A stretch of DNA of 64,000 nucleotides from an uncultured virus (IMG/VR IMGVR_UViG_2061766007_004329) (taxonomy: Duplodnaviria > Heunggongvirae > Uroviricota > Caudoviricetes). The first letter of the stretch is position 1, and each line of letters begins with the position of its first letter. The notes beneath the pieces are model-generated. The model had not been told where the DNA came from, searched no databases, and saw only the letters and a program-made list of their open reading frames with translations. The position numbers were made by a program, and so were the translations under genes. The stretch is taken from the IMG/VR virus record IMGVR_UViG_2061766007_004329; one strand, given 5' to 3'. Shown here piece by piece: positions 38,760-62,077 of the stretch.

Positions 38760-40007
38760 TTATTCAGCTGGCCAGGTTTCAGCCACAGCCTCTTCATAGG
38801 AAAGCTCCGTTCCATCGCGGAGCACTTTTACATTTTGGGACGCACCTTCGTGGAACTGAATGTACCTGTCCACAATGACGGAGGCATACCGTTCGTCCAG
38901 CTCCATCGTGTAGCAAATGCGGTCTGTCTGGTCGCAGGCCATGAGTGTGCTGCCGGAGCCGCCAAACAGATCCATAACCACCGCATTCGGTGCGGAGCTG
39001 TTCTTGATGGGGTACGCCACCAGCGGGATGGGCTTCATCGTAGGATGCTCGGCGCTCTTCTTCGGCTTGTCATACTGCCAGATGGTGGTCTGCTTTCGGT
39101 CGGCATACCACTTGTGCTTGCCGTTGGGCAGCCATCCATAGAGCACCGGCTCNNNNNNNNNNNNNNNNNNNNNNNNNNNNTTTGCCCAGATGCACACGCC
39201 GCTCAGGTGAAAGCCGGCCTCCTTGAAGGCTCGCCTGAAGTTGATCCCTTCCATATCCGCATGGAATACATAAGCACTGCCACCCTCAGCCATGTGCGCC
39301 GCCATGTTCCTGAAGGCGGTAAGAAGGAAGTTGAAGAACTGCCCGTCCTCCATGCTGTCGTTCTGGATGCTTTTTCCGTCTGCGGATTCATACGCCACGT
39401 TGTACGGCGGGTCCGTCACCACCAGGTTGGCCTTGATCCCGCCCAAGAGCAGGTCAACATCCTCCTCGTTGGTGCTGTCACCGCACATCATGGTGTGCCT
39501 GCCGATTTTCCAGATGTCCCCGCGCTTCACGAACGGAGCAATGGTCTCCGGATCGGCCTCACACTCGTCATCCTTGACTTCTTTGTCATGCACCTTGCTG
39601 AACAGATCATCCACCTCGGCCATATCAAAGCCGGTTGCCGTCACGTCATAACCGGACTGCTGCAAGTCCTGCAGCAGATCGGCCAGCGCGGTCGGTTCCC
39701 AGTCGCCGGTTGCTTTGTTCAGCGCGATATTCAGGGCTTTTTCGTCCTGCGGGTTCTCGATATGAACCACCACGCAGTCCACTTCCGTCGCGCCTTCATT
39801 GACCAGCACCTTGTAGCGCTGGTGGCCTCCGACGATGTTGCCGGTCACCTCATTCCAGACGATGGGGTCTACATACCCAAAGTCGTGCAGGCTGCGCTTA
39901 ATCTTCTCATAGGCCGAGTCTCCCGGCTTCAGGTCTTTGCGTGGGTTGTATTTCGCGGGCTTCAGCTGATCCACAGGAAGCCGCTTCATCGTCAACTCTG
40001 TTTTCAT
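38760..40007 (-). CDS. ParB-domain N6/N4 DNA methyltransferase (copy 1)
   Basis: YNPR/GGHQR ParB domain, TDPPY, HPTMKP, DLFGGSGST. Confidence 0.93.
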   Translation of the reverse strand: MKTELTMKRLPVDQLKPAKYNPRKDLKPGDSAYEKIKRSLHDFGYVDPIVWNEVTGNIVGGHQRYKVLVNEGATEVDCVVVHIENPQDEKALNIALNKATGDWEPTALADLLQDLQQSGYDVTATGFDMAEVDDLFSKVHDKEVKDDECEADPETIAPFVKRGDIWKIGRHTMMCGDSTNEEDVDLLLGGIKANLVVTDPPYNVAYESADGKSIQNDSMEDGQFFNFLLTAFRNMAAHMAEGGSAYVFHADMEGINFRRAFKEAGFHLSGVCIWAXXXXXXXXXXEPVLYGWLPNGKHKWYADRKQTTIWQYDKPKKSAEHPTMKPIPLVAYPIKNSSAPNAVVMDLFGGSGSTLMACDQTDRICYTMELDERYASVIVDRYIQFHEGASQNVKVLRDGTELSYEEAVAETWPAE

Positions 40008-40018
40008 GTGTCTCTCCT

Positions 40019-41263
40019 TTACTCGCTCACGATCTCCTCAAAAGAAAAGGTCTGGCCTCCGCGAAGGACAGACACATCTTCACTTGTCTCCACCAGGTCG
40101 ATGTACCTCTGCACGATGACCGAAGCATACCGTTCGTCCAGCTCCATCATATAGCAGATACGACTCGTCTGTTCACAGGCAATGAGCGTGCTGCCCGAGC
40201 CGCCGAAGGTATCCAGCACCACAGCGTTCGGCGCAGAGCTATTCTGCAGCGGATAGGCCAGCAGTGGGATGGGCTTCATTGTCGGATGGTCCTTGGAGCG
40301 CTTCGGCTTGTCGTACTGCCAGATGGAACTCTGATTCTTCCCTGCAAACCAGCGGTGCTGGCCGTTGGGCAGCCAACCGAAGAGCACGGGTTCATGCTGC
40401 CACTGGTACGGCGAACGCCCAAGCACCATGCTGTTTTTCATCCAAATACATACACCGGCGATGGCAAATCCCGCCTCCTGAAAGGCCGTCCGGAAGTTCA
40501 GTCCCTCGGTATCTGCGTGGAAGATGTACGCAGACGCGCCTTCGGCCAGGTGAGGTACCCAATTCTGAAAAGCGGCAAAAAGAAAAGCATGGAACTTCTC
40601 ATCTTCCATGCTGTCGTTCTGGATGCTCTTGCCGTCAGCCGATTCATACGCCACGTTGTAGGGCGGGTCCGTGATGACGAGGTTCGCCTTAACGTCTCCC
40701 ATGAGAATGTTGAGGTCGGCAGGGGAAGTAGCATCGCCGCAGTACACGCGATGCGGCCCCAGCTGCCAGAGATCGCCGGGCTTCACGAAGGGTTTGATGG
40801 TGTCTGCACTCAGGTCGGTATCATCGTCTTCCAGGTCATCCACATCCTTCCGCGCCAGTAACGCGTCGATCTCATCATCATCAAAACCGGTCAGGCCGAG
40901 GTTATAGCCGGACTCCTGGAGGTCAAGCAGCAGCGAGGCCAGAGACTGATCTTCCCATTCGCCCACGGCCTTGTTGAGCGCGATATTCAGGGCTTTTTCA
41001 TCCTGCGGGTTCTCAATGTGAACCACCACACACTCAATCTCAGCAGCACCCTCGGCCACCAGGATTTTGAAGCGCTGATGCCCGCCGACGATATTGCCCG
41101 TCACTTCATTCCAGATCAGCGGGTCGACATATCCATACTCGTCCAGGCTGCGTTTGATCTTCTCATAGGCGGCATCCCCCGGCTGCAGGTCCAGACGGGG
41201 ATTGTACTTTGCCGGTTTCAGAAGTTCCACCGGCACACGCCGTGTTTCAATACTCGTTTTCAC
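40019..41263 (-). CDS. ParB-domain N6/N4 DNA methyltransferase (copy 2)
   Basis: Same motifs: TDPPY, HPTMKP, DTFGGSGST. Confidence 0.93.
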   Translation of the reverse strand: MKTSIETRRVPVELLKPAKYNPRLDLQPGDAAYEKIKRSLDEYGYVDPLIWNEVTGNIVGGHQRFKILVAEGAAEIECVVVHIENPQDEKALNIALNKAVGEWEDQSLASLLLDLQESGYNLGLTGFDDDEIDALLARKDVDDLEDDDTDLSADTIKPFVKPGDLWQLGPHRVYCGDATSPADLNILMGDVKANLVITDPPYNVAYESADGKSIQNDSMEDEKFHAFLFAAFQNWVPHLAEGASAYIFHADTEGLNFRTAFQEAGFAIAGVCIWMKNSMVLGRSPYQWQHEPVLFGWLPNGQHRWFAGKNQSSIWQYDKPKRSKDHPTMKPIPLLAYPLQNSSAPNAVVLDTFGGSGSTLIACEQTSRICYMMELDERYASVIVQRYIDLVETSEDVSVLRGGQTFSFEEIVSE

Positions 41264-42202: not shown

Positions 42203-42235
42203 TGGACTTTCCGGCCCCGCGGAGTGATTAATGTG
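42203..42235 (+). promoter_or_regulatory. Putative promoter of the amidoligase operon
   Basis: TGGACT...GAGTGATTAATGT; related motifs at 47397-47425 and 19250-19280. Confidence 0.55.
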
Positions 42236-42301
42236 TCACGGGCCGGAAAACGGCCCCACCGGGCGGGCGGGAAAAGCCGCCGCCGGAAAGGAGCGCGAAC
42301 C

Positions 42302-43192
42302 ATGAACAGCATGAAAGAGCAGACCTTCGGTGTTGAGGTCGAAATGATCCTCTCCCGCGAGAAAGCCGCGAAGACCATCGCCGAGTATTTCGGCACCACG
42401 GCCCGCTACGTCGGCGGCGCCTACCACGCATGGAAGGTGCGCGACCTGCAGGGCCGCGAATGGACGGTCGAGAGCGACGCTTCCATTGATGCTCCGAACG
42501 GGGAGATGCAATGCGAGTTCGTCACCCCGATCTGCCGCTGGGACGACCTCGAAACCCTGCAGGAGCTCATCCGCGAGCTCCGGAAGGCGGGCGGCAAGGC
42601 ACACCGCTCCTGCGGCATCCACGTTCACATCGGCCTCGGGGAGCACACCCCGAAAACCCTCCGGAATCTGGTGAACATCATCAACGCACACGAGGACCTC
42701 CTGACCCAGGCGCTGGCCATCTCCTTCGATCGCCGCGCCCGCTGGTGCAAGCCGGTCGACCCTTCCTTCCTCCAGCGCCTGAACCGGCGGAAGCCCGACA
42801 CCAGCGAAGCCTTCGCCCAGCTTTGGTACAACGACCGCGCCTGGGAATACCACGCACACCAGCACTACGACCCCAGCCGCTACCACCTGCTCAACCTCCA
42901 CGCGGTGTGGCAGAANNNNNNNNNNAGGGCCTTCAACAGCACGCTCCACGCCGGCGAAATCAAGAGCTACGTCCAGCTCTGCGCGGCCATTTCCTTCATG
43001 GCCCTCAAGGCCAGCGCCGCCAGCCCGCGCAGGCCGGTCACCGACAACCCCGCCTACACCTTCCGGTGCTGGCTCCTCCGGCTCGGCATGAACGGCGAGG
43101 AGTTCAAGACCGCCCGCACACACCTCCTGAAAAACCTGCCCGGGAACGCCGCATGGCGCAATGGCACCCCGACCGCCCGACGCACCGCCTGA
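42302..43192 (+). CDS. Phage amidoligase (COOH-NH2 ligase type 2 / Amidoligase_2)
   Basis: TFGVEVE, SDASI, CEFVTP, SCGIHVH, RYHLLN, FNSTLHAGEIK; AAGGAG RBS. Confidence 0.9.
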   Translation: MNSMKEQTFGVEVEMILSREKAAKTIAEYFGTTARYVGGAYHAWKVRDLQGREWTVESDASIDAPNGEMQCEFVTPICRWDDLETLQELIRELRKAGGKAHRSCGIHVHIGLGEHTPKTLRNLVNIINAHEDLLTQALAISFDRRARWCKPVDPSFLQRLNRRKPDTSEAFAQLWYNDRAWEYHAHQHYDPSRYHLLNLHAVWQXXXXRAFNSTLHAGEIKSYVQLCAAISFMALKASAASPRRPVTDNPAYTFRCWLLRLGMNGEEFKTARTHLLKNLPGNAAWRNGTPTARRTA

Positions 43193-43210
43193 TCCGGGCG
43201 AGAACCACAC

Positions 43211-43270
43211 CCCGCCCGACGAGTGCCCGGTGGCTCCGGGCCGAAACGCCCAGCGCGTCGCGGGAAGCCG
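43211..43270 (+). ncRNA. Type I hammerhead ribozyme HHR1 (core variant CCGACGA); predicted cleavage after C43259
   Basis: Stem I CCCGC/GCGGG; stem II G(U)GCCCGG/CCGGGCC; GAAA; stem III ACGC/GCGU; GUC; loop UGGCU pairs with 3' AGCCG. Confidence 0.82.
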
Positions 43271-43301
43271 CACATTTCAGAAATCGAAGGAGGACACACC
43301 C

Positions 43302-43901
43302 ATGAAGAAGACCACCATTGAGCGCATGTACACCGAGAAAGTCGCTGAGCTCCTGAACCAAGGCTGGCGCATCCACACCAGCACCATGCCCGGCCATCAG
43401 GGCGAGATCGCACACGTCGACCTGACCGACGGCTCTGAAATCCGCAGGGCCCTCCTGTGCCGGGAGATGACCTGGGGCCACAGCGACGCCGAATTCTACG
43501 GCCACAAGATCATCATCATGGTCGGGAAGAACACCGACCGGATCTGGCCGGGCTGGGACAGCACACTCTGGAACAACCACATGGAAGTCTGCTCCCAAAT
43601 CGAGCTGGCCGAGATACAGGAGCCCGACCACCATCACCCCGAGGGCTGGTACACCGACATGGCCAGCGCCCAAGATATCCAGCGCATTCGCAATGAGCGC
43701 CGGAGAGCACAGCGCACCCCCACCGAGAAGGCACTCGGCACAGCTTACAAATCGATCGCCCTGCGCTGGCTCCGGAAACAGCCCCGCATGAAGAACACCA
43801 GGCTGGAGGACATCACGAAGGTGATCCGGTACACCAAGCGCGACGGGAGCACCGGCTTCCAAATCGAGGCCAAGGGCAAGATATACACCCTCCACGCCTG
43901 A
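43302..43901 (+). CDS. Hypothetical protein (199 aa) bracketed by two hammerheads
   Basis: AAGGAGG RBS, open frame, stop immediately before HHR2. Confidence 0.85.
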   Translation: MKKTTIERMYTEKVAELLNQGWRIHTSTMPGHQGEIAHVDLTDGSEIRRALLCREMTWGHSDAEFYGHKIIIMVGKNTDRIWPGWDSTLWNNHMEVCSQIELAEIQEPDHHHPEGWYTDMASAQDIQRIRNERRRAQRTPTEKALGTAYKSIALRWLRKQPRMKNTRLEDITKVIRYTKRDGSTGFQIEAKGKIYTLHA

Positions 43902-43902
43902 C

Positions 43903-43962
43903 CCCGCCTGACGATGGCCTCTGGCACAGGCCGAAACGCCCAACAGGGCGTCGCGGGAGCCA
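43903..43962 (+). ncRNA. Type I hammerhead ribozyme HHR2; predicted cleavage after C43952
   Basis: CCCGC-CUGACGA-U-GGCCU(CUGGCAC)AGGCC-GAAACGCCC(AACA)GGGCGUC-GCGGG-AGCCA; canonical core, three stems and pseudoknot. Confidence 0.92.
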
Positions 43963-43997
43963 TCCCGACAGCTTTCAAATCAAGGAGGATTTACACC

Positions 43998-44612
43998 ATG
44001 TGCATCATCTGCGTATCACCCACCGGAGTCCGTCAGCCCAACTACACCACCATCCGCACCATGTTCCGAAACAACCCCCATGGCGCCGGGTATATGTTCG
44101 CCCGGGACGGCAAGGTTCACATCAGCAAGGGATACATGGACATCGACAGCCTGCTCGACGCCCTGCGGTGCGAACACTTCACGAAGAAGGACGCGGTTGT
44201 GTACCATTTCCGCATCAGCACTCAGGCGGGCGTCAGCCCGCAGATGACCCATCCCTTCCCGCTTTCAAATCGACGCGAGCACATGAAGGTGCTGGACCTG
44301 GACTGCAAATGCGGCATCGCACACAACGGCATCATCCGGCTCACCACCGACCCGACCAACAAGGAATACAGCGATACGGCCATTTTCATCACCGACTACC
44401 TCTCCGAAATCATCCGCAAGCCCAGCGACCTGAAAAGCCCCGGAATCCTGAAGCTGATCCAGCGGCTGGCAGGCTCCAAATTGGCGATCATGGACGCGGC
44501 CGGATACATCGCCACGGTCGGGTATTTCATCAACGAGAACGGCCTGCTCTTCAGCAACAACAGCTTCATCATGCCGAAGATCCACTGGACTTTCCCCACC
44601 CAGCGCTCCTGA
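43998..44612 (+). CDS. Class II (Ntn) glutamine amidotransferase-like protein
   Basis: M-C N-terminal nucleophile, NPHGAG, HFRIST, HPF, AHNGII, SDT motifs. Confidence 0.88.
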   Translation: MCIICVSPTGVRQPNYTTIRTMFRNNPHGAGYMFARDGKVHISKGYMDIDSLLDALRCEHFTKKDAVVYHFRISTQAGVSPQMTHPFPLSNRREHMKVLDLDCKCGIAHNGIIRLTTDPTNKEYSDTAIFITDYLSEIIRKPSDLKSPGILKLIQRLAGSKLAIMDAAGYIATVGYFINENGLLFSNNSFIMPKIHWTFPTQRS

Positions 44613-44629
44613 ATCGAGCGCTGGAGTTC

Positions 44630-44704
44630 CCCGCATGACGACGGCTAGAGGAATATAACCGCCGAGGCTCAGNNNNNNNNNNNNNNNNNNNNNNNGGGAA
44701 GCCA
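44630..44704 (+). ncRNA. Degenerate or gapped hammerhead-like element HHR3
   Basis: CCCGC-AUGACGA-CGGC...GCCGAGGC, N-run, then GGGAAGCCA 3' tail. Confidence 0.45.
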
Positions 44705-44737
44705 CACGCTTTCAAATCGAAAAGGAGGAATAATCCC

Positions 44738-44932
44738 ATGATCACGCTCCCACGATACACCTACAATCTCCTGTTCCTGCGCACCGATGGTGAACAGGAA
44801 TTAGTCGAACACGTCACTGAGAAGGAGGCCCGCGAACACCTCGCGCTCTTTGGAGACGGGGACGCGGATATCTACCGGCGAATCGACCTGTATGAGCAAG
44901 ACTGGCTGACCCAAACAAGCCGCCGCTTGGAC
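44738..44932 (+). CDS. Small hypothetical protein (3' end in gap)
   Basis: AAGGAGG RBS; MITLPRYTYN... Confidence 0.65.
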
Positions 44933-44955
44933 NNNNNNNNNNNNNNNNNNNNNNN

Positions 44956-44999
44956 CGGCCCCAGGCCGAAACCGGGCGTCGCCCGGTCGCGGGAAGCCG
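44956..44999 (+). ncRNA. Type I hammerhead HHR4, 3' half (5' half in gap); predicted cleavage after C44988
   Basis: CGGC loop...AGGCC-GAAACCGGGC(GUC)GCCCGGUC-GCGGG-AAGCCG. Confidence 0.75.
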
Positions 45000-45031
45000 C
45001 AAACAGCTTTCAAATCGAAGGAGGATTCATC

Positions 45032-45250
45032 ATGAAGAACACAAATCAGCACACTCTCAGCCTTGAAACCTGCATGGACATTCTCAATTGGTTCAACGAC
45101 AGCAACTATGACTACATCAATCACATCATGACCGCCAAGCTCGACGGCGAGGAGCGGATCAACTGTGCCTTGCCCGCCATTTCAGAATACTGTCTGAATC
45201 TGGTCGACGCCCATCGCGCATCCGACAATGCCTATCCGCTGGAGGTCTGA
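45032..45250 (+). CDS. Small hypothetical protein (72 aa)
   Basis: AAGGAGG RBS after HHR4; MKNTNQHTLS... Confidence 0.7.
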   Translation: MKNTNQHTLSLETCMDILNWFNDSNYDYINHIMTAKLDGEERINCALPAISEYCLNLVDAHRASDNAYPLEV

Positions 45251-45277
45251 CACAGCTTTCAAATTGAGGAGGCCATT

Positions 45278-45460
45278 ATGAATCAGCCCATTGACACATC
45301 CACGCTCATCCAGGCAGTTCTTGAATACGCTGCCGAACACAGCCAGGAGGACGCTTACCAGTCCGTTACCCGGCTTCTTGCCGCCAAACAGATCTCCCTG
45401 GATCAGTGGTATGACAGCATCCACGCCCTGTACCCGGAGGCCCCCACAGAGACGAATTGA
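45278..45460 (+). CDS. Small hypothetical protein (60 aa)
   Basis: GAGGAGG RBS; last gene before the terminator. Confidence 0.65.
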   Translation: MNQPIDTSTLIQAVLEYAAEHSQEDAYQSVTRLLAAKQISLDQWYDSIHALYPEAPTETN

Positions 45461-45487
45461 CTTTTCGCCGCGCGTATGGCAATCCCA

Positions 45488-45510
45488 CCGCCCTTCAGGG
45501 CGGCTTTTTT
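45488..45510 (+). terminator. Intrinsic terminator of the amidoligase operon
   Basis: CCGCCC-TTCA-GGGCGG followed by C and T6. Confidence 0.8.
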
Positions 45511-45856
45511 GCTTTCAAATCGTCGCGGCCACGCTGCCGCCACGTTCGCGCCTGTCCCCAGGAATGGGAAAACCCTCGGCCGTCGGGAAGAAGTGGCGAC
45601 GTGGGCCAATTCCCGCCGCCACGTTGCGAAGCGGCCGGCTTTCAAATCGTCACGNNNNNNNNNNNNNNNNNNNNNNNNNNNNNNNNNNNNNNNNNNNNNN
45701 NNNNNNNNNNNNNNNNNNNNNNNNNNNNNNNNNNNNNNNNNNNNNNNNNNNNNNNNNNNNNNNNNNNNNNNNNNNNNNNNNNNNNNNNNNNNNNNNNNNN
45801 NNNNNNNNNGCTGAAGCGGCGACGTGGGCCAATTCCGGCGACGACGTTCGGTAACA

Positions 45857-45887
45857 AGAAAAGCGACCCGCCGAAGCAAGCCGCTCT
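45857..45887 (-). terminator. Putative intrinsic terminator of the minus-strand unit
   Basis: AGCGGCTTGC-TTCG-GCGGGTCGCT followed by TTTCTT. Confidence 0.6.
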
Positions 45888-45923
45888 CATATTTTCACTT
45901 TTCATGGCGGGCAACTGTCAGGA

Positions 45924-46443
45924 TTACTTCCCGACAACATCCCAGGCTATTTCCACACCGTGACCGGTGTCTCTGAACCGCAGGATCAGGTCGCCGTCCT
46001 GTACCTCATAGCTCACATGAAATGGCTGCCCCCACATCTCCTTCAGGCCCTTNNNNNNNNNNCCGGTATGCTTCGAAATCCGCTTTGCCTTTCTCTTCCT
46101 GCCAGCGCTCAAAGAGCTGGGAAAGGAAAGGCAGCTGTGTGTTCCTGATCTCCTCCCAGGCTTCCGCACCGGACACAGCTTTGAAATCGCCAGCCGGTCG
46201 TTCCGGCTGGAAACAGGCCCAGGAGGTCAGCGGCTTCGGGTTCCGCATGAAGGCAAGCATCGCTTCCTCGGTGCCGCACTGATCGCACACCATGATCCCG
46301 GCGCTTCCAGCCTCCCGGCTGAGAGCGTTGGTGTAGAGCTCCGGCTTCATCCGGTCGAGTCCGCAGCGCGGGCAAACCATGTGTTCACCCGATTCCTGCC
46401 GCGCTTTCAAATCCGCCAGTTTCTGTTTCAGCGTATCATTCAT
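45924..46443 (-). CDS. Hypothetical Zn-finger protein (gapped)
   Basis: CPRCG...NALSR...CDQCG; overlaps the upstream stop. Confidence 0.7.
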
Positions 46444-56916: not shown

Positions 56917-58086
56917 TTACTGTGCAAAATCGGAAGCTGCGCTGGAGATCGCCTGCCGGGGATCTGAAATCGGCACCAGCATCGGAGCGCCTTCGGGCTT
57001 GTACACCAGATCACCGAGCACATCTTTGAACGCCTTTCTGCCCATGCGCTTCTCCAAATCTCCCACGCCCAGCAGCGTGGTCTTGTAGATGTCTGTGTAC
57101 CCGGCGTCAGTACATGCCCTGATGACCTCGGCTTCGCTGGTGTATTTGCGGACGGTGCGTCCGGCCACCAGCTTGTAGCCAGTCCACTGTTTGCCCTCAA
57201 CGGCCTGCTGCGTCGCAAAGGCGAGAAGGTCCTGAACCCAGTTGTTGAGCGCCTCGGCGATGGGCAGCATGTCGGCGATTTCCTCGTCGGTCAGCAGATC
57301 GGGCTGTTTGAAGTCCCGCCTGGCCAGCTGCATGAAATACTCGCTGCGGGCGCGGCAGGTGTGACGGGCCTTGCACCACCGGCAGTGTTCACCGGCGCAG
57401 AACTCGCCTTCGCCCTTCTGGGCCAGCAGCGCCCTCGGGTGCAGGTATTCGTCCGCCCACCTGATCAGCTCGTCCGCGCCCATCTCGAAGGAGGAGATGT
57501 TCTGAAGACGGGGCTGCACGATGGTCATGCGCAGCGTCCTGATGTCGTACAGCGGATCGAACTCCAGCAAAGCTCCGAGACCGTACAGCATCAGCTGGCT
57601 GTTGTGGTCGGCGTTCACACGAACCCCGCGCCCGCCCTTGAAGTCGATGACTTCGATCACGCCGTCCGCAATGGCTATAAAATCGCCGGTGCCGAAGCCA
57701 CCCGGCACATACTTGCTGAAGTCCAGCCTGTGCTCCACGGCGATGTAGGGATCAGGGCAGGACAGACGGATCGCCTCGATGATCTCAATGCAGTGATTGA
57801 CGTACACATCGGTGACCTCTTCGGCCTCATCCGTGTAGAAATCGCTGTTGCGGTGTTCGGCGTACTGACGCTCGATCACGTCAGGCGTCATGTCGCCCAG
57901 ATACCTGTGGAGCTTCAGCTCGCACAGCTCGTGGAGGAACGTGCCTTCCTCGGCGAACACTGAAGGCTTGTCCTGAAACTGTGCCGACAGCATGGCGCTG
58001 GGGGTACACTTGAGCCAGCGCTCAGAAGAGGAGGGCCCTAGCTCCGAGTGGCTGCGTTCACTGTGCTGAATGACCTGATCTTTCAC
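56917..58086 (-). CDS. DUF2800 Cas4-like PD-(D/E)xK nuclease, copy A
   Basis: SSERWLKC, GFGTGD, IDFKGG, QLMLY, HCRWCK...C. Confidence 0.9.
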   Translation of the reverse strand: MKDQVIQHSERSHSELGPSSSERWLKCTPSAMLSAQFQDKPSVFAEEGTFLHELCELKLHRYLGDMTPDVIERQYAEHRNSDFYTDEAEEVTDVYVNHCIEIIEAIRLSCPDPYIAVEHRLDFSKYVPGGFGTGDFIAIADGVIEVIDFKGGRGVRVNADHNSQLMLYGLGALLEFDPLYDIRTLRMTIVQPRLQNISSFEMGADELIRWADEYLHPRALLAQKGEGEFCAGEHCRWCKARHTCRARSEYFMQLARRDFKQPDLLTDEEIADMLPIAEALNNWVQDLLAFATQQAVEGKQWTGYKLVAGRTVRKYTSEAEVIRACTDAGYTDIYKTTLLGVGDLEKRMGRKAFKDVLGDLVYKPEGAPMLVPISDPRQAISSAASDFAQ

Positions 58087-58493
58087 AGCTTATTCACCTC
58101 ATCCATGAGTGGGCCATACTTGTCTTCAGGCAGCTCGGTCAGCTTCGACACGCCGAAGCCCTTTAGGATCGCCTTGATTTTTCCCCTGTTTTCCGGTTTC
58201 GTGCGCTCGGCAACAAAGGCGCGGACCTCTGTGATGGTGTACTTCTTGGCGGGCGGGGTGTTCGTCGGTGTCGGCTCATTCGCCAATGAAGCCTCGGCTT
58301 CAGCGACCCACTCGGGATCGACCGTCGTCTTGCCGGTAATTTCTGCCGCTTCGTTCTCAGCCTTCTTCGCGGCCAGCTGCTCCGCACAGTCGTCCACCAC
58401 GATCTGCATCGCTGCCGCCATCGCCTGCGCTTCATCTGCCATTGCCTGCGCATGGCTGGCAATGTCGGCCAGCATCTTCAAGCTCATCGTCAT
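58083..58493 (-). CDS. Phage hypothetical protein, copy A
   Basis: GVSKLTELPEDKY C-terminal motif. Confidence 0.75.
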   Translation of the reverse strand: MTMSLKMLADIASHAQAMADEAQAMAAAMQIVVDDCAEQLAAKKAENEAAEITGKTTVDPEWVAEAEASLANEPTPTNTPPAKKYTITEVRAFVAERTKPENRGKIKAILKGFGVSKLTELPEDKYGPLMDEVNKL

Positions 58494-58644
58494 TTCCTTT
58501 TCCTCCTTTTTAGTAGTCGTACTGTGCCAGTTCCCGGAGCTTGTCCGCCATGTCGTCCTGCTCCCAGGGAAGGTTGAGATCGGTGCGCCCGTAATGTCCG
58601 TACACGGAGATCAGGCTGTAGCTCGGCGTGGTCAGCTTGAGCCG
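58490..58644 (-). other. Second, divergent copy of the metK 3' end next to a gap
   Basis: Similar to 60439-60575 (YGH.GRTDLNLPWEQDDMAD). Confidence 0.7.
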
Positions 58645-58654
58645 NNNNNNNNNN

Positions 58655-58813
58655 CTCTTCGATGGCGGCTTTGATCTCGCCGACTGTTTTGCTGTCGGAC
58701 TTGGGGATGATGAGCGACAGGGAATACTTGGGGTCGGAGCCGTTCACGCTCTGCGGCTCGAAGATGTGTACGAAAGACGCGCGGCACTTGCCTGTGATAA
58801 CTTTGGTAGACAT
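58655..58813 (-). CDS. DUF2815 N-terminal fragment truncated by a gap
   Basis: MSTKVITGKCRASF..., as in 56879. Confidence 0.7.
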
Positions 58814-58851
58814 AATATCTTTCCTTTCTCCCCTCTATGGGGTGTTCGCCT

Positions 58852-60021
58852 TTACCATTCAAAATCGGAAGCCGTGGCTGATAAAGCCTGCCGGGGATCG
58901 GACACCGGTACCAGTGTAGGCGCGCCTTCTGGCTTGTACACCAGTTTGCCCAGTACGTCCCGGAAAGCCTTCCTGCCCATGCGCTTTTCCAGATCGCCCA
59001 CACCCAGCAGCGTGGTCTTGTAGATGTCCGTGTACCCGGCGTCAGTACAGGCTTTGATGACCTCAGCCTCGCTTGTGTACTTCCGGACAGTGCGTCCCGC
59101 CACCAGCTTGTAGCCAGCCCACTGTTTGCCCTCAATGGCCTGTTGCGTTGCAAAGGCCAGCATGTCCTGCACCCAATTGTTGAGCGCTTCAGCGATGGGC
59201 AGCATGTCGGCTATCTCCTCGTCGGTCAGCAGGTCGGGCTGCTTGAAATCGCGCCTGGCCAGCTGCATGAAATACTCGCTGCGGGCACGGCAGGTGTGGC
59301 GGGCCTTGCACCAGCGGCAGTGTTCGCCCGCACAGAACTCCCCCTCGCCCTTCTGCGCCAGCAGCGCTCGCGGGTGCAGATACTCGTCTGCCCACCTGAG
59401 CAACTCGTTGGCATCCATCTCGAAGGAGGAGATATTCTGGAGCCTGGGCTGCACGATGGTCATGCGCACGGTCTTGATATCGTACAGCGGATCAAACTCC
59501 AGCAGGGCGCCCAGGCCGTACAGCATGAGCTGGCTGTTGTGATCCGCATTCACCCGGACTCCGCGCCCGCCTTTGAAATCGATCACCTCAATCACGCCAT
59601 CCGCGATGGCGATGAAATCACCTGTGCCGAAACCATCCGGCACATATTCGCTGAAATCCAGCCTGTGTTCCACTGCAATATAGGGATCTGGGCAGGACAG
59701 GCGGATCGCTTCGATCACTTCAATGCAGTGGTTGACGTACTCATCGGTGACTTCTTCGGCCTCATCCGAATAGAAATCGTTGTCCCGATGCTCTGCATAC
59801 TGGCGTTCAATGACGTCCTGTGTCATGTCGCCGAGATACCTGTGGAGCTTCAGCTCGCACAGTTCATGGAGGAATGTGCCCTCTTCGGCATAGACCGAGG
59901 GCTTATCCTGAAACTGCGCTGACAGCACTGCGCTGGGCGTACACTTGAGCCAGCGTTCTGAGGACGAAGGGCCAAGCTCCGAGTGCCCGCGCCCACTGTG
60001 CTGAATCACCTGGTCTTTCAC
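58852..60021 (-). CDS. DUF2800 Cas4-like nuclease, copy B
   Basis: Same length (389 aa) and motifs as copy A. Confidence 0.9.
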   Translation of the reverse strand: MKDQVIQHSGRGHSELGPSSSERWLKCTPSAVLSAQFQDKPSVYAEEGTFLHELCELKLHRYLGDMTQDVIERQYAEHRDNDFYSDEAEEVTDEYVNHCIEVIEAIRLSCPDPYIAVEHRLDFSEYVPDGFGTGDFIAIADGVIEVIDFKGGRGVRVNADHNSQLMLYGLGALLEFDPLYDIKTVRMTIVQPRLQNISSFEMDANELLRWADEYLHPRALLAQKGEGEFCAGEHCRWCKARHTCRARSEYFMQLARRDFKQPDLLTDEEIADMLPIAEALNNWVQDMLAFATQQAIEGKQWAGYKLVAGRTVRKYTSEAEVIKACTDAGYTDIYKTTLLGVGDLEKRMGRKAFRDVLGKLVYKPEGAPTLVPVSDPRQALSATASDFEW

Positions 60022-60438: not shown

Positions 60439-61608
60439 TCAGTGATCACCCTGTGCCAGTTTCCGGAGCTCGTCAGCCATGTCATCCTGTTCCCAGGGAA
60501 GGTTCAGGTCGGTGCGGCCGAAGTGCCCGTATACGGAAACCATGCTGTAGCTGGGCGTATTCAGCTTCAGGCGCCTGATGATCGCCGAGGGCTTCAGATC
60601 AAACACCTGCTGAACCAGCCTTGCCAGCTCGTTATCCGGCTTCTTACCGGTGCCAAATGTGTTCACTGTAATGCCTACAGGATGGCACACGCCGATGGCG
60701 TACACGATGGAAACCTCGCACTGGCTGCACAGCTTTGCGGCGACAAGGTTCCGCGCGATCCAGCGAGCAGCATATGCGCCGGAGCGGTCCACCTTGCTGG
60801 CGTCCTTACCGGAGAGTGCACCGCCGCCGATGTGCCCGACAGGGCCATACTGATCCACGGCCAGCTTTCGCCCGGTCAGGCCGGTGTCGGCAGCAGGGCC
60901 GCCCAGCACAAACCGACCGGAAGGGTTCACCAGCAGCCTTGAATTGGGTGTCCACATATCAGATCTGCCTACCGCTTTATACACGACCCGCGTCACCATG
61001 CCCTGAAGAATGTCTTCCGGCGCGTTTGGCGCATGCTGCACCGAGACGACAATAGTGTGGACATACACGCGGCCACCCTCGTACTTGAGGGACACCTGCG
61101 CTTTGCCGTCCACGCCCAGCCAAATCGTGTGCGCCGCTTCCTTATCCAGCAGTCGGCAGATGCGCTGGGCGATGATGAACGCAAGGGGCATCTTCGCGCT
61201 GGTCTCGTCGGTCGCGTAGCCGACCATGATGCCCTGGTCCCCCGCGCCCTGATCGCTGTCCGGATACCGGCCTTCCACAGCGGCGGCAATGTCCGGAGAC
61301 TGGTTGTGGATGTTGACGTAGATATCCAGGCTGTTCATGTCCTCCTCGCACAGATCCGCACGACGGTACCCGACCTGCTGGATGACACTGTCCACGATCT
61401 TGCCATAGTCCACCTCGGCACGGGAAGTGACCTCGCCGGCAATTACGATGTTGCCCGCCGTGGCCATCACCTCCACCGCAACACGGGCGTCGGGATCATA
61501 GCTCAGGTGTGCGTCCAGGATCGCGTCGGCGATCTGGTCACAGAACTTATCCGGGTGGCCGCGTCTCACGGCCTCAGCGGTTACGAGCCTTGCATTCCTT
61601 TCATTCAT
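60439..61608 (-). CDS. metK: S-adenosylmethionine synthetase (phage-encoded)
   Basis: GHPDK, GAGDQG, DGKAQV, GGGALSGKD signatures. Confidence 0.95.
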   Translation of the reverse strand: MNERNARLVTAEAVRRGHPDKFCDQIADAILDAHLSYDPDARVAVEVMATAGNIVIAGEVTSRAEVDYGKIVDSVIQQVGYRRADLCEEDMNSLDIYVNIHNQSPDIAAAVEGRYPDSDQGAGDQGIMVGYATDETSAKMPLAFIIAQRICRLLDKEAAHTIWLGVDGKAQVSLKYEGGRVYVHTIVVSVQHAPNAPEDILQGMVTRVVYKAVGRSDMWTPNSRLLVNPSGRFVLGGPAADTGLTGRKLAVDQYGPVGHIGGGALSGKDASKVDRSGAYAARWIARNLVAAKLCSQCEVSIVYAIGVCHPVGITVNTFGTGKKPDNELARLVQQVFDLKPSAIIRRLKLNTPSYSMVSVYGHFGRTDLNLPWEQDDMADELRKLAQGDH

Positions 61609-62077
61609 GAAACGTTCCTCCAAATTCAGTAGATTGGGATTCCAGCGTCCGCCTGGTCAGCCGCCGCCAGCAGATCAGCACACGTGCCGCCACCAGTTTG
61701 CAGCCGCGCTTGACACGCATCCAGAAGTACACCGGCACATAGCCAGCGTCCTCGCCAGTCGTGAACACATCGGTGATGTACCAGATCCCATGCACTTTCC
61801 TGATGATCAGGAAAAGGCCGGACTGGTAGCAGAGCTCCTGGCATTCCGTATCCATGAAAACACCCTTTTCCTCATGGGCGGTGATGTACAGGGCCAGATC
61901 TGCTTTGATGTTGATGGACTGAATAAAAGCGGAAACCGGAGAAGTGTTATGCTGGAGCAGCTGCTTCCAGCCGTCCCTGGTGAACTCAACGCTCACACGA
62001 GCGGACTTGAAGAGGAGCTTTGTGATCTCCGCCATGCGATGCCACATAACGGCGGGAGAAGTGAAAGATACCTGCAT
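61601..62077 (-). CDS. Hypothetical protein
   Basis: GGAGG RBS, ATG at 62077, overlaps the metK start. Confidence 0.7.
   Translation of the reverse strand: MQVSFTSPAVMWHRMAEITKLLFKSARVSVEFTRDGWKQLLQHNTSPVSAFIQSINIKADLALYITAHEEKGVFMDTECQELCYQSGLFLIIRKVHGIWYITDVFTTGEDAGYVPVYFWMRVKRGCKLVAARVLICWRRLTRRTLESQSTEFGGTFHE

Follow-up and report, generated by a model that had tools for sequence, protein, structure and literature searches.

Clusters of hammerhead ribozymes (HHRs) in prophages, several of them placed around single genes or short blocks whose gene identity is inconstant, were described in 2011 (Perreault 2011, PMC3088659). As far as the accessible part of that paper goes, three arrays cleave in vitro, one of them from Clostridium scindens, and an Agrobacterium array also does so in E. 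coli; gene-length mRNAs were proposed as products, and spliced or circular products were raised, sought and not detected (data not shown). The same part reports that the core variant U4C lowers hammerhead activity in vitro and that, in a type II construct, insertions and deletions around the pseudoknot lower rates by orders of magnitude. A 2019 review, in its available sections, still asks for work defining the purpose of such ribozymes. Work on B. subtilis shows that the 5'-OH RNA left by glmS ribozyme cleavage is broken down by RNase J1 and that mRNA is stabilised by hairpins at its 5' end (PMC3997798, accessible sections).

The window analysed here, a 64,000-nt stretch of DNA from an uncultured virus, is a prophage, judged from its phage gene set. 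A Pfam scan of 35 ORFs found terminase, portal, Clp protease, capsid and tail genes, together with DNA polymerase A, a VapE-like primase, an SNF2 helicase and two serine recombinases. A short plus-strand operon (42302-45460), oriented opposite to the remaining prophage, has four hammerhead-like spacers inside it. The features of this region are the following.

42302..43192, plus strand: putative amidoligase gene (PF12224, E 1.5e-58; phrog_2443), the first gene of the operon.
43211..43272, plus strand: H1, type I hammerhead of the long-stem-II class (7 bp), core variant U4C, predicted cut after 43259.
43260..43271, plus strand: predicted 5'-terminal hairpin with a 4-bp stem and a 4-nt loop, made of the stem I 3' arm and the pseudoknot strand.
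43272..43301, plus strand: leader (repeat families D1/D3) with a repeated motif of the (C)TTTCA(G)AAATCG type and a GGAGG ribosome-binding site.
43302..43901, plus strand: 199-aa ORF (phrog_38037, E 4e-20), kept by Clostridia phages and prophages.
43903..43967, plus strand: H2, type I hammerhead of the short-stem-II class (5 bp), canonical core, predicted cut after 43952.
43998..44612, plus strand: 204-aa ORF, matched by tblastn to a phage gene annotated as putative glutamine amidotransferase (30.7%, E 8e-15).
44630..44706, plus strand: H3, probable hammerhead, recognised from sequence only, with GAAA, stem III and the cut site under Ns.
44738..44932, plus strand: small ORF of at least 65 aa that enters an N gap, no family match in Pfam or PHROG.
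44956..45000, plus strand: H4, readable 3' part of a hammerhead (stem II end, GAAA, stem III, UC, GCGGG, AAGCCGC).
45032..45460, plus strand: two small ORFs of 72 aa (45032-45250) and 60 aa (45278-45460) that share the leader motif.
45488..45513, plus strand: intrinsic-terminator-like hairpin at the operon end, weak because the region holds 3 such sites against a chance expectation of 3.4.

The 199-aa protein has 155 homologues and a structure model with a pLDDT of 88.8; it gave no Pfam match above the cut-off and no Foldseek match at E ≤ 0.001, its atlas scores stayed below 0.8, and the best VIA match had Z 5.9 across 54 residues, so that no function was assigned. The 204-aa ORF probably encodes a class II glutamine amidotransferase, given an N-terminal Cys right after Met, which we take to be a trait of that family; the protein had no Pfam match and no PDB sequence match. 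The amidoligase gene (42302..43192) contains a 10-nt run of Ns, and no HHR lies between the 72-aa and 60-aa ORFs. A consensus scan of the region found no sigma-70 promoter; a TGGACT...TAAT-like site near 42203-42235 was spotted by eye only. The amidoligase leader (42236-42301) holds a GC-rich hairpin like the post-cleavage hairpin, without a hammerhead, and many relatives carry a long-class HHR at the matching position.

Several further observations concern the surroundings of the operon. The motif CTT(T/C)CAAATCG (one mismatch allowed) occurs 15 times on the plus strand of the window and once on the minus strand, 12 of the plus-strand matches falling within 43592-46404 and some of them in ORFs; across 25 arrays it gave 101 matches, 0 of them on the reverse strand, at 1.43/kb inside and 0.56/kb outside, and several alignment breakpoints fall close to it. 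The motif may act as a signal for protein binding or for recombination. Elsewhere in the window there are paired nearby DUF2800 genes (56920-60021), tandem ParB-methyltransferase-like genes (38760-41263) and a SAM synthetase gene (60442-61623), and the minus-strand ORF at 46440-47366 matches the amidoligase PHROG without a Pfam domain. In one related locus (L245:3787-3857), a tRNA gene lies near a distant homologue of the 199-aa gene.

An earlier note on this DNA had proposed that cuts after 43259 and 43952 free a 693-nt unit carrying a ribosome-binding site and the 199-aa ORF, and the analysis agrees: the two predicted cuts lie within UC|GCGGG junctions, between UC and GCGGG, and would release a fragment that begins GCGGGAAGCCG and contains the GGAGG site and the ORF from 43302. 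H1 pairs loop II UGGCU with tail AGCCG, and the downstream product of H2 is predicted to open with a 5-bp hairpin (43954-43967). The core of H3 reads ATGACGA (C3A) and its 5' arm lies at 44630; at the equivalent place in relative L181 there is an HHR whose loop II is enlarged. H4 has a predicted cut after 44988, its 3' arm at 44989 and a product hairpin like that of H1, N runs at 44673-44695 and 44933-44955 masking halves of H3 and H4. The note's description of a stem I that is CCCGC/GCGGG wherever readable was confirmed, in whole for H1 and H2 and by the readable arms for H3 and H4, as were its (A)AGCC(A/G) 3' tails, which agree in H1, H2 and the readable parts of H3 and H4.

A strict-core scan of the window gave 1 match (H2), compared to a total of 1 over 30 block shuffles; H1 was detected by a relaxed scan only, owing to its U4C change, and the shuffle control covers the strict scan alone. 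The type I elements CUGANGA, GAAA and UH were found at the three-way junction, canonical in H2 and with the natural variant U4C in H1. By sequence and covariation tests the HHRs of this family are real type I hammerheads, with cleavage predicted. Searches with Rfam returned no hammerhead for the window (E ≤ 1) and none, at the gathering threshold, for 14 related loci, one of which has five scanned HHRs; thus Rfam models miss this hammerhead group. Long inserts in loop II or stem III were seen at L181:2310-2386, L218:6388-6467, L224:6668-6747 and 44642-44672 of the window, and some insert-bearing HHRs hold the leader motif within stem III.

Related loci were gathered via the 199-aa or 204-aa protein, plus a DNA pattern biased towards this stem I, which gave 276 distinct HHRs (454 hits in 327 sources), and the closest named records of these loci were rumen and gut Clostridia genomes. 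Among the 189 loci from the 199-aa alignment, 82 lacked HHRs, and 52 carried between two and six of them on the coding strand; these arrays of 2-6 HHRs stand around single genes or short blocks, with inconstant genes. A complete GenBank phage genome labelled Ca. Heliusvirales (PV036454.1) has the same array with three HHRs, its likeness consisting of one accessory gene at 69% plus the array. U4C was present in 10 of 148 unique HHRs, and stem I was CCCGC/GCGGG in 122 of 145 HHRs from protein-selected loci.

For covariation, H1 was aligned with 43 of 48 long-class HHRs, five minus-strand, pattern-selected rows being omitted. In the 43 distinct long-class HHRs, 92.2% of cells were paired, compared to 81.9% after shuffling, and 10 pairs showed compensatory change as opposed to 6.0 in shuffles, 0 of 500 of which reached the observed value. 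Covariation extended to stems I (open), II and III, stem I hardly varying, and the stem part of the test leans towards structure because the rows had been chosen by a scan that demanded these stems. The loop II/tail pseudoknot, a mark of type I hammerheads, was recovered by covariation and by permutation: one of its pairs was C-G in 33, U-A in 10 and unpaired in 0 of these sequences, and permuting tails within the long class gave P < 0.0005, a value inflated, like the other P values, by the relatedness of the sequences. The pseudoknot was unused in HHR detection; nevertheless, the covariation rows were picked by tail class.

The family has two geometries, one with a short stem II and a one-base linker and the other with a long stem II and a two-base linker. 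A total of 107 distinct stem II/tail combinations were collected, of which 104 could be classed: 33 were short/short, 71 long/long and 0 mixed. H1 is long and H2 is short, so joining the two ends of the 693-nt unit would create a ribozyme of the mixed type. On paper the H1-H2 hybrid retains a 5-bp stem I together with 4 pseudoknot pairs, of which one becomes G-U, and it joins the short stem II of H2, whose native linker is one A, to the tail of H1, which has a two-A linker. The claim that the hammerhead halves are interchangeable, pseudoknot included, was therefore not confirmed for this unit, the geometry of the hybrid being seen in 0 of 104 natural combinations. The pseudoknot sensitivity of the type II construct would, by analogy, carry over to such a type I hybrid.

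Neighbouring HHRs showed no sign, in their sequences, of selection for re-ligation. Of 97 distinct neighbour pairs, 46 matched in class (51.1 by permutation), 78 could re-form a 5-bp stem I (78.0 by permutation) and 23 gave a fully native-like hybrid (24.4 by permutation), so that in principle about one unit in four could restore a native-like ribozyme. Among units shorter than 800 nt, 27 of 46 were class-mismatched, 26 of those in the order of H1-H2, and 19 were class-matched. Lone HHRs had the same stem I in 12 of 12 cases; thus, the constancy of stem I is no sign of neighbour pairing. At L204:4836-5223, L208 and L260, neighbouring HHRs have a common long stem III and differing stem II/tail classes, as if gene conversion had evened out stem III only.

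The released products are predicted to start with a hairpin. In the folded 693-nt fragment (ViennaRNA), the hairpin at 43260..43271 had a pair probability of 0.98, and recurred in a further fold, and the hybrid stem I had a probability of 0.015; over 46 units the latter had a median of 0.0055, exceeded 0.1 in 9 and reached a maximum of 0.56. These probabilities are rough, since ViennaRNA lacks pseudoknots and left native HHRs unfolded (stem I probability 0). Taken on its own, the stem I duplex is the stronger of the two structures (-8.3 kcal/mol, against -5.7 kcal/mol for the 12-nt hairpin), so that the hairpin prevails only because stem I would have to close a costly loop of ~640 nt.

A 5' hairpin at most 2 bases from the end was found in 67 of 81 protein-selected products, compared to 45.7 expected when downstream bases were shuffled, and in 80 of 93 pattern-selected products, compared to 40.5 expected, the failures numbering 14 and 13, respectively. 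When 225 products were thinned to 94 dissimilar ones, 79 had the hairpin as opposed to 43.9 expected, or 61.1 expected if two more tail bases were held fixed. Swapping downstream parts between HHRs reached the observed mean in 0 of 60 trials in either class; 34 of 48 exact GCGG..CCGC hairpins were not attributable to extension of the pseudoknot, and in all 8 tails with a stem I arm other than GCGG the 5' end still folded back. In many short-class HHRs the partner strand of the hairpin was the conserved GCTYYC leader. On these folding results, the predicted product hairpin is a conserved trait of the family. The cut lay 30-76 nt upstream of the next start codon in 79 products, which makes every product a ready mRNA, and RNase J1 attack on 5'-OH RNA implies that a useful 5'-OH mRNA would need a hairpin. 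Local folds showed no consistent shift in ribosome-binding-site accessibility with cleavage.

The gene content between HHRs varied widely. The earlier note had asked for inter-HHR ORF content to be compared across relatives, with invariance as the outcome that would speak against its cassette idea; the ORFs within and next to the arrays formed 167 clusters, and each inter-HHR unit contained from one to about seven ORFs. By tblastn, 54 loci carrying the 199-aa gene had enough flank to be judged; in 2 of them it was the sole gene between two HHRs, and in 22 the scan detected no type I HHR up to 1.5 kb away. Comparing relatives that share at least 90% identity, and that are not necessarily direct ancestor and descendant, we found nine distinct gains or losses of 250-780 bp. 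Five of the nine were HHR-bounded on both sides, HHRs covering 8.6% of the positions examined; four of these were labelled by script, with repeats of 56-106 bp, and the fifth (L219), whose second HHR the scanner had overlooked, was read by hand. The remaining four did not run from HHR to HHR: two showed ribosome-binding-site/ATG microhomology, one started at an HHR tail and one lacked an HHR. Together with the variable gene content, the five HHR-bounded indels support the suggestion that the conserved spacers serve as recombination points for swapping ORFs.

Crossovers could be placed upstream of the cut, in stem I or the core, for L240/L239 and L206/L263, and downstream of it, at the ribosome-binding site, for L218/L224 and L210/L260; L207/L204 and L219/L224 had long crossover intervals that include the cut site. 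With no crossover pinned to the cut and no cross-class chimeras, DNA recombination between short repeats is favoured over an RNA route. We infer that recombination acts in DNA, its products being filtered for working ribozymes.

Public sequencing runs were examined for RNA junctions. Sixteen runs matched the stretch, as contigs only and each in at most 0.12 of its words; four of them, from four studies, were aligned at 80% likeness and consisted mostly of relatives' sequence. The joint 43952 to 43260 was not present in the four aligned runs, whose contigs cannot show absence, and the same runs, again contigs only, had no start or stop pile-ups; the four joints of the main table in the aligned contigs were forward skips. 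A contig in run X1 with a back-jump from 43919 to 43251 and 25 other letters turned out to be the genomic HHR of L235 and not a circle, so that short junction reads in metagenomes are ambiguous, a relative's genomic HHR mimicking a back-junction. A second back-jump (44616 to 43968) lay off any cut site, and an endless ORF read from a circle was excluded because a stop codon precedes the junction. In run X13, a 159-nt contig from a cDNA library lies on 43306-43446 with no differences to the 199-aa gene; it has adapter letters at both ends and is thus probably one amplified fragment. The self-pairing of the 693-nt unit was not unusual (z -1.48, 20 shuffles), and no RtcB or reverse transcriptase was found among the 43 prophage ORFs scanned.

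From the computed HHR anatomy and covariation, the two non-mixing geometries, the predicted hairpin, the variable gene content and the HHR-bounded indels, we infer cleavage in vivo, its irreversibility, RNase J protection and DNA-level recombination, and we consider it probable that transcripts of the array are processed one way, into linear mRNAs capped by hairpins, and that the ribozyme repeat also recombines. The operon would be built of a repeated module consisting of a stop codon, a type I hammerhead, a leader, a ribosome-binding site and one or more genes, and every hammerhead would cut one time in the transcript. The short downstream strand would then quit the ribozyme and fold back on itself into a hairpin at the freshly made 5'-OH terminus; this hairpin would block re-ligation and would probably guard the mRNA from a 5' exonuclease of the RNase J type, such that the operon transcript would become separate linear mRNAs of one to several genes each. 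As a dispersed direct repeat, the 60-100-bp module would allow recombination between copies to add, remove or replace gene units. The U4C change of H1 counts against this model. A broader proposal, in which the 60-100-bp part has, in gut Clostridia phages, a dual job as self-capping ribozyme insulator and recombination point within an integron-like array without an integrase, is offered tentatively and is one we lean against.

We judged it unlikely that cleavage is instead a decay or uncoupling switch like glmS, which would destabilise or tune each mRNA, possibly through translation of the upstream gene or a factor, with the hairpin only aiding product release. The glmS precedent in Firmicutes (PMC3997798, accessible sections), U4C-type core variants and large loop II or stem III inserts that could tune rates, and upstream stop codons a few bases from stem I are consistent with such a switch; however, no ligand-binding element was seen, and in 150 of 159 minimum-energy folds the 5' end closes into a hairpin that leaves no more than 2 bases free, a structure that hinders 5' decay. 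The chances are lower still that the module is retained mainly as a portable expression or recombination part, cleavage being incidental or lightly selected. The 22 of 54 loci that have the 199-aa gene and no nearby scanned HHR would fit this, as would the use of the same leader motif by HHR-less genes and the 4 of 9 indels that were not HHR-bounded on both sides, whereas compensatory conservation of core, stems and pseudoknot and the unmixed geometries point to selection for catalysis.

It is improbable that the released units are circularised, by a rebuilt hammerhead or host RtcB, into functional circular mRNAs as the main product, which the earlier note had envisaged for the excised unit. 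The ends would be a 5'-OH and a 2',3'-cyclic phosphate, the hybrid keeps its stem I and pseudoknot pairs on paper, 23 of 97 neighbour pairs were native-like and 19 of 46 short units class-matched, and RtcB circularised 30-80% of retrozyme monomers in vitro (PMC7229834, accessible part). Against this stand the hybrid geometry (0 of 104), the lack of neighbour selection (class match 46 of 97 against 51.1 permuted) and the stem I of lone HHRs (12 of 12), as well as the large rate losses caused by pseudoknot indels in the type II construct and the circles sought and not detected by Perreault 2011 (both PMC3088659, accessible part), and a retrozyme self-ligation of only 1-3% in vitro (PMC7229834, accessible part). 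The predicted hairpin, moreover, hides the 3' strand, hybrid stem I probability being 0.015 here with a median of 0.0055 over 46 units; the unit shows no unusual degree of self-pairing (z -1.5), only 2 of 54 loci place the 199-aa gene by itself between two HHRs, and neither a ligase such as RtcB (43 ORFs) nor a reverse transcriptase occurs among the prophage ORFs scanned. An RtcB of the host could still join the ends. True protein-coding circles may form in a minority of units that have matched geometry and lack the hairpin lock. We give very little credence to a shuffling of cassettes via RNA, by cleavage, ligation (skipping or circle re-insertion) and reverse transcription into the prophage: gained or lost units often ran exactly from HHR to HHR and some intervals include the cut, but the mappable switches lay in stem I or the core upstream or at the ribosome-binding site downstream, cross-class chimeras of body and tail were not seen, and no reverse transcriptase was present among the ORFs scanned.

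The hairpin lock, the two geometries and the mapped indels make the question of why phages place ribozymes between genes, posed since 2011, directly testable, and the family supplies more than 200 natural variants. A role as crossover points for accessory-gene exchange could explain why the ribozymes are retained and spread, and the modules could provide compact self-capping parts for gene expression in Firmicutes. A circular mRNA would be more striking; the sequence evidence runs contrary to it.

Overall, the array resembles several known systems and differs from each of them. T4-type PeSL modules, which bound gene cassettes in phage hypervariable regions, are regulatory repeats of promoter and stem-loop that also offer the homology at which genes come and go; the module here would have the same double use, but its repeated part is catalytic RNA plus leader. 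The array architecture and the idea of circles are already known from Perreault 2011, and the present locus is like the arrays of Clostridium scindens, Azorhizobium and Agrobacterium in its tandem HHRs, variable genes, prophage context and loop II-3' tail pseudoknot. It is unlike their description in the product hairpin, the geometry classes and recombination, the string 'recombin' occurring 0 times in the main text of PMC3088659, as far as this was accessible. What this analysis adds is the hairpin lock, the pair of geometries and the mapping of HHR-bounded indels, and a literature search, in which most subscription papers were outside reach, returned nothing on a product hairpin or on HHRs as crossover points.

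Like retrozymes (the non-LTR kind with type I HHRs, PMC7229834, accessible part, and the plant LTR kind), the array has units of some hundred bases between two HHRs and would give 5'-OH and cyclic-phosphate ends. Retrozymes, according to the same source, are one unit tandemly repeated, non-coding, highly self-paired and circularised mainly by tRNA ligase, whereas here neighbouring HHRs differ in geometry, the units are unrelated protein genes and folding is no better than in shuffles. The junction of the 693-nt unit would not rebuild a native ribozyme as in retrozymes and viroid-like RNAs (H1 long, H2 short), nor is the unit a self-paired non-coding monomer (z -1.48; conserved 199-aa ORF). Like the glmS ribozyme of Firmicutes, which is ligand-triggered and whose product is degraded by RNase J1 (PMC3997798, accessible sections), self-cleavage in the leader would leave a 5'-OH mRNA with its ORF; unlike glmS, the ribozyme recurs from gene to gene, and a predicted hairpin, conserved in the family, would open the product.
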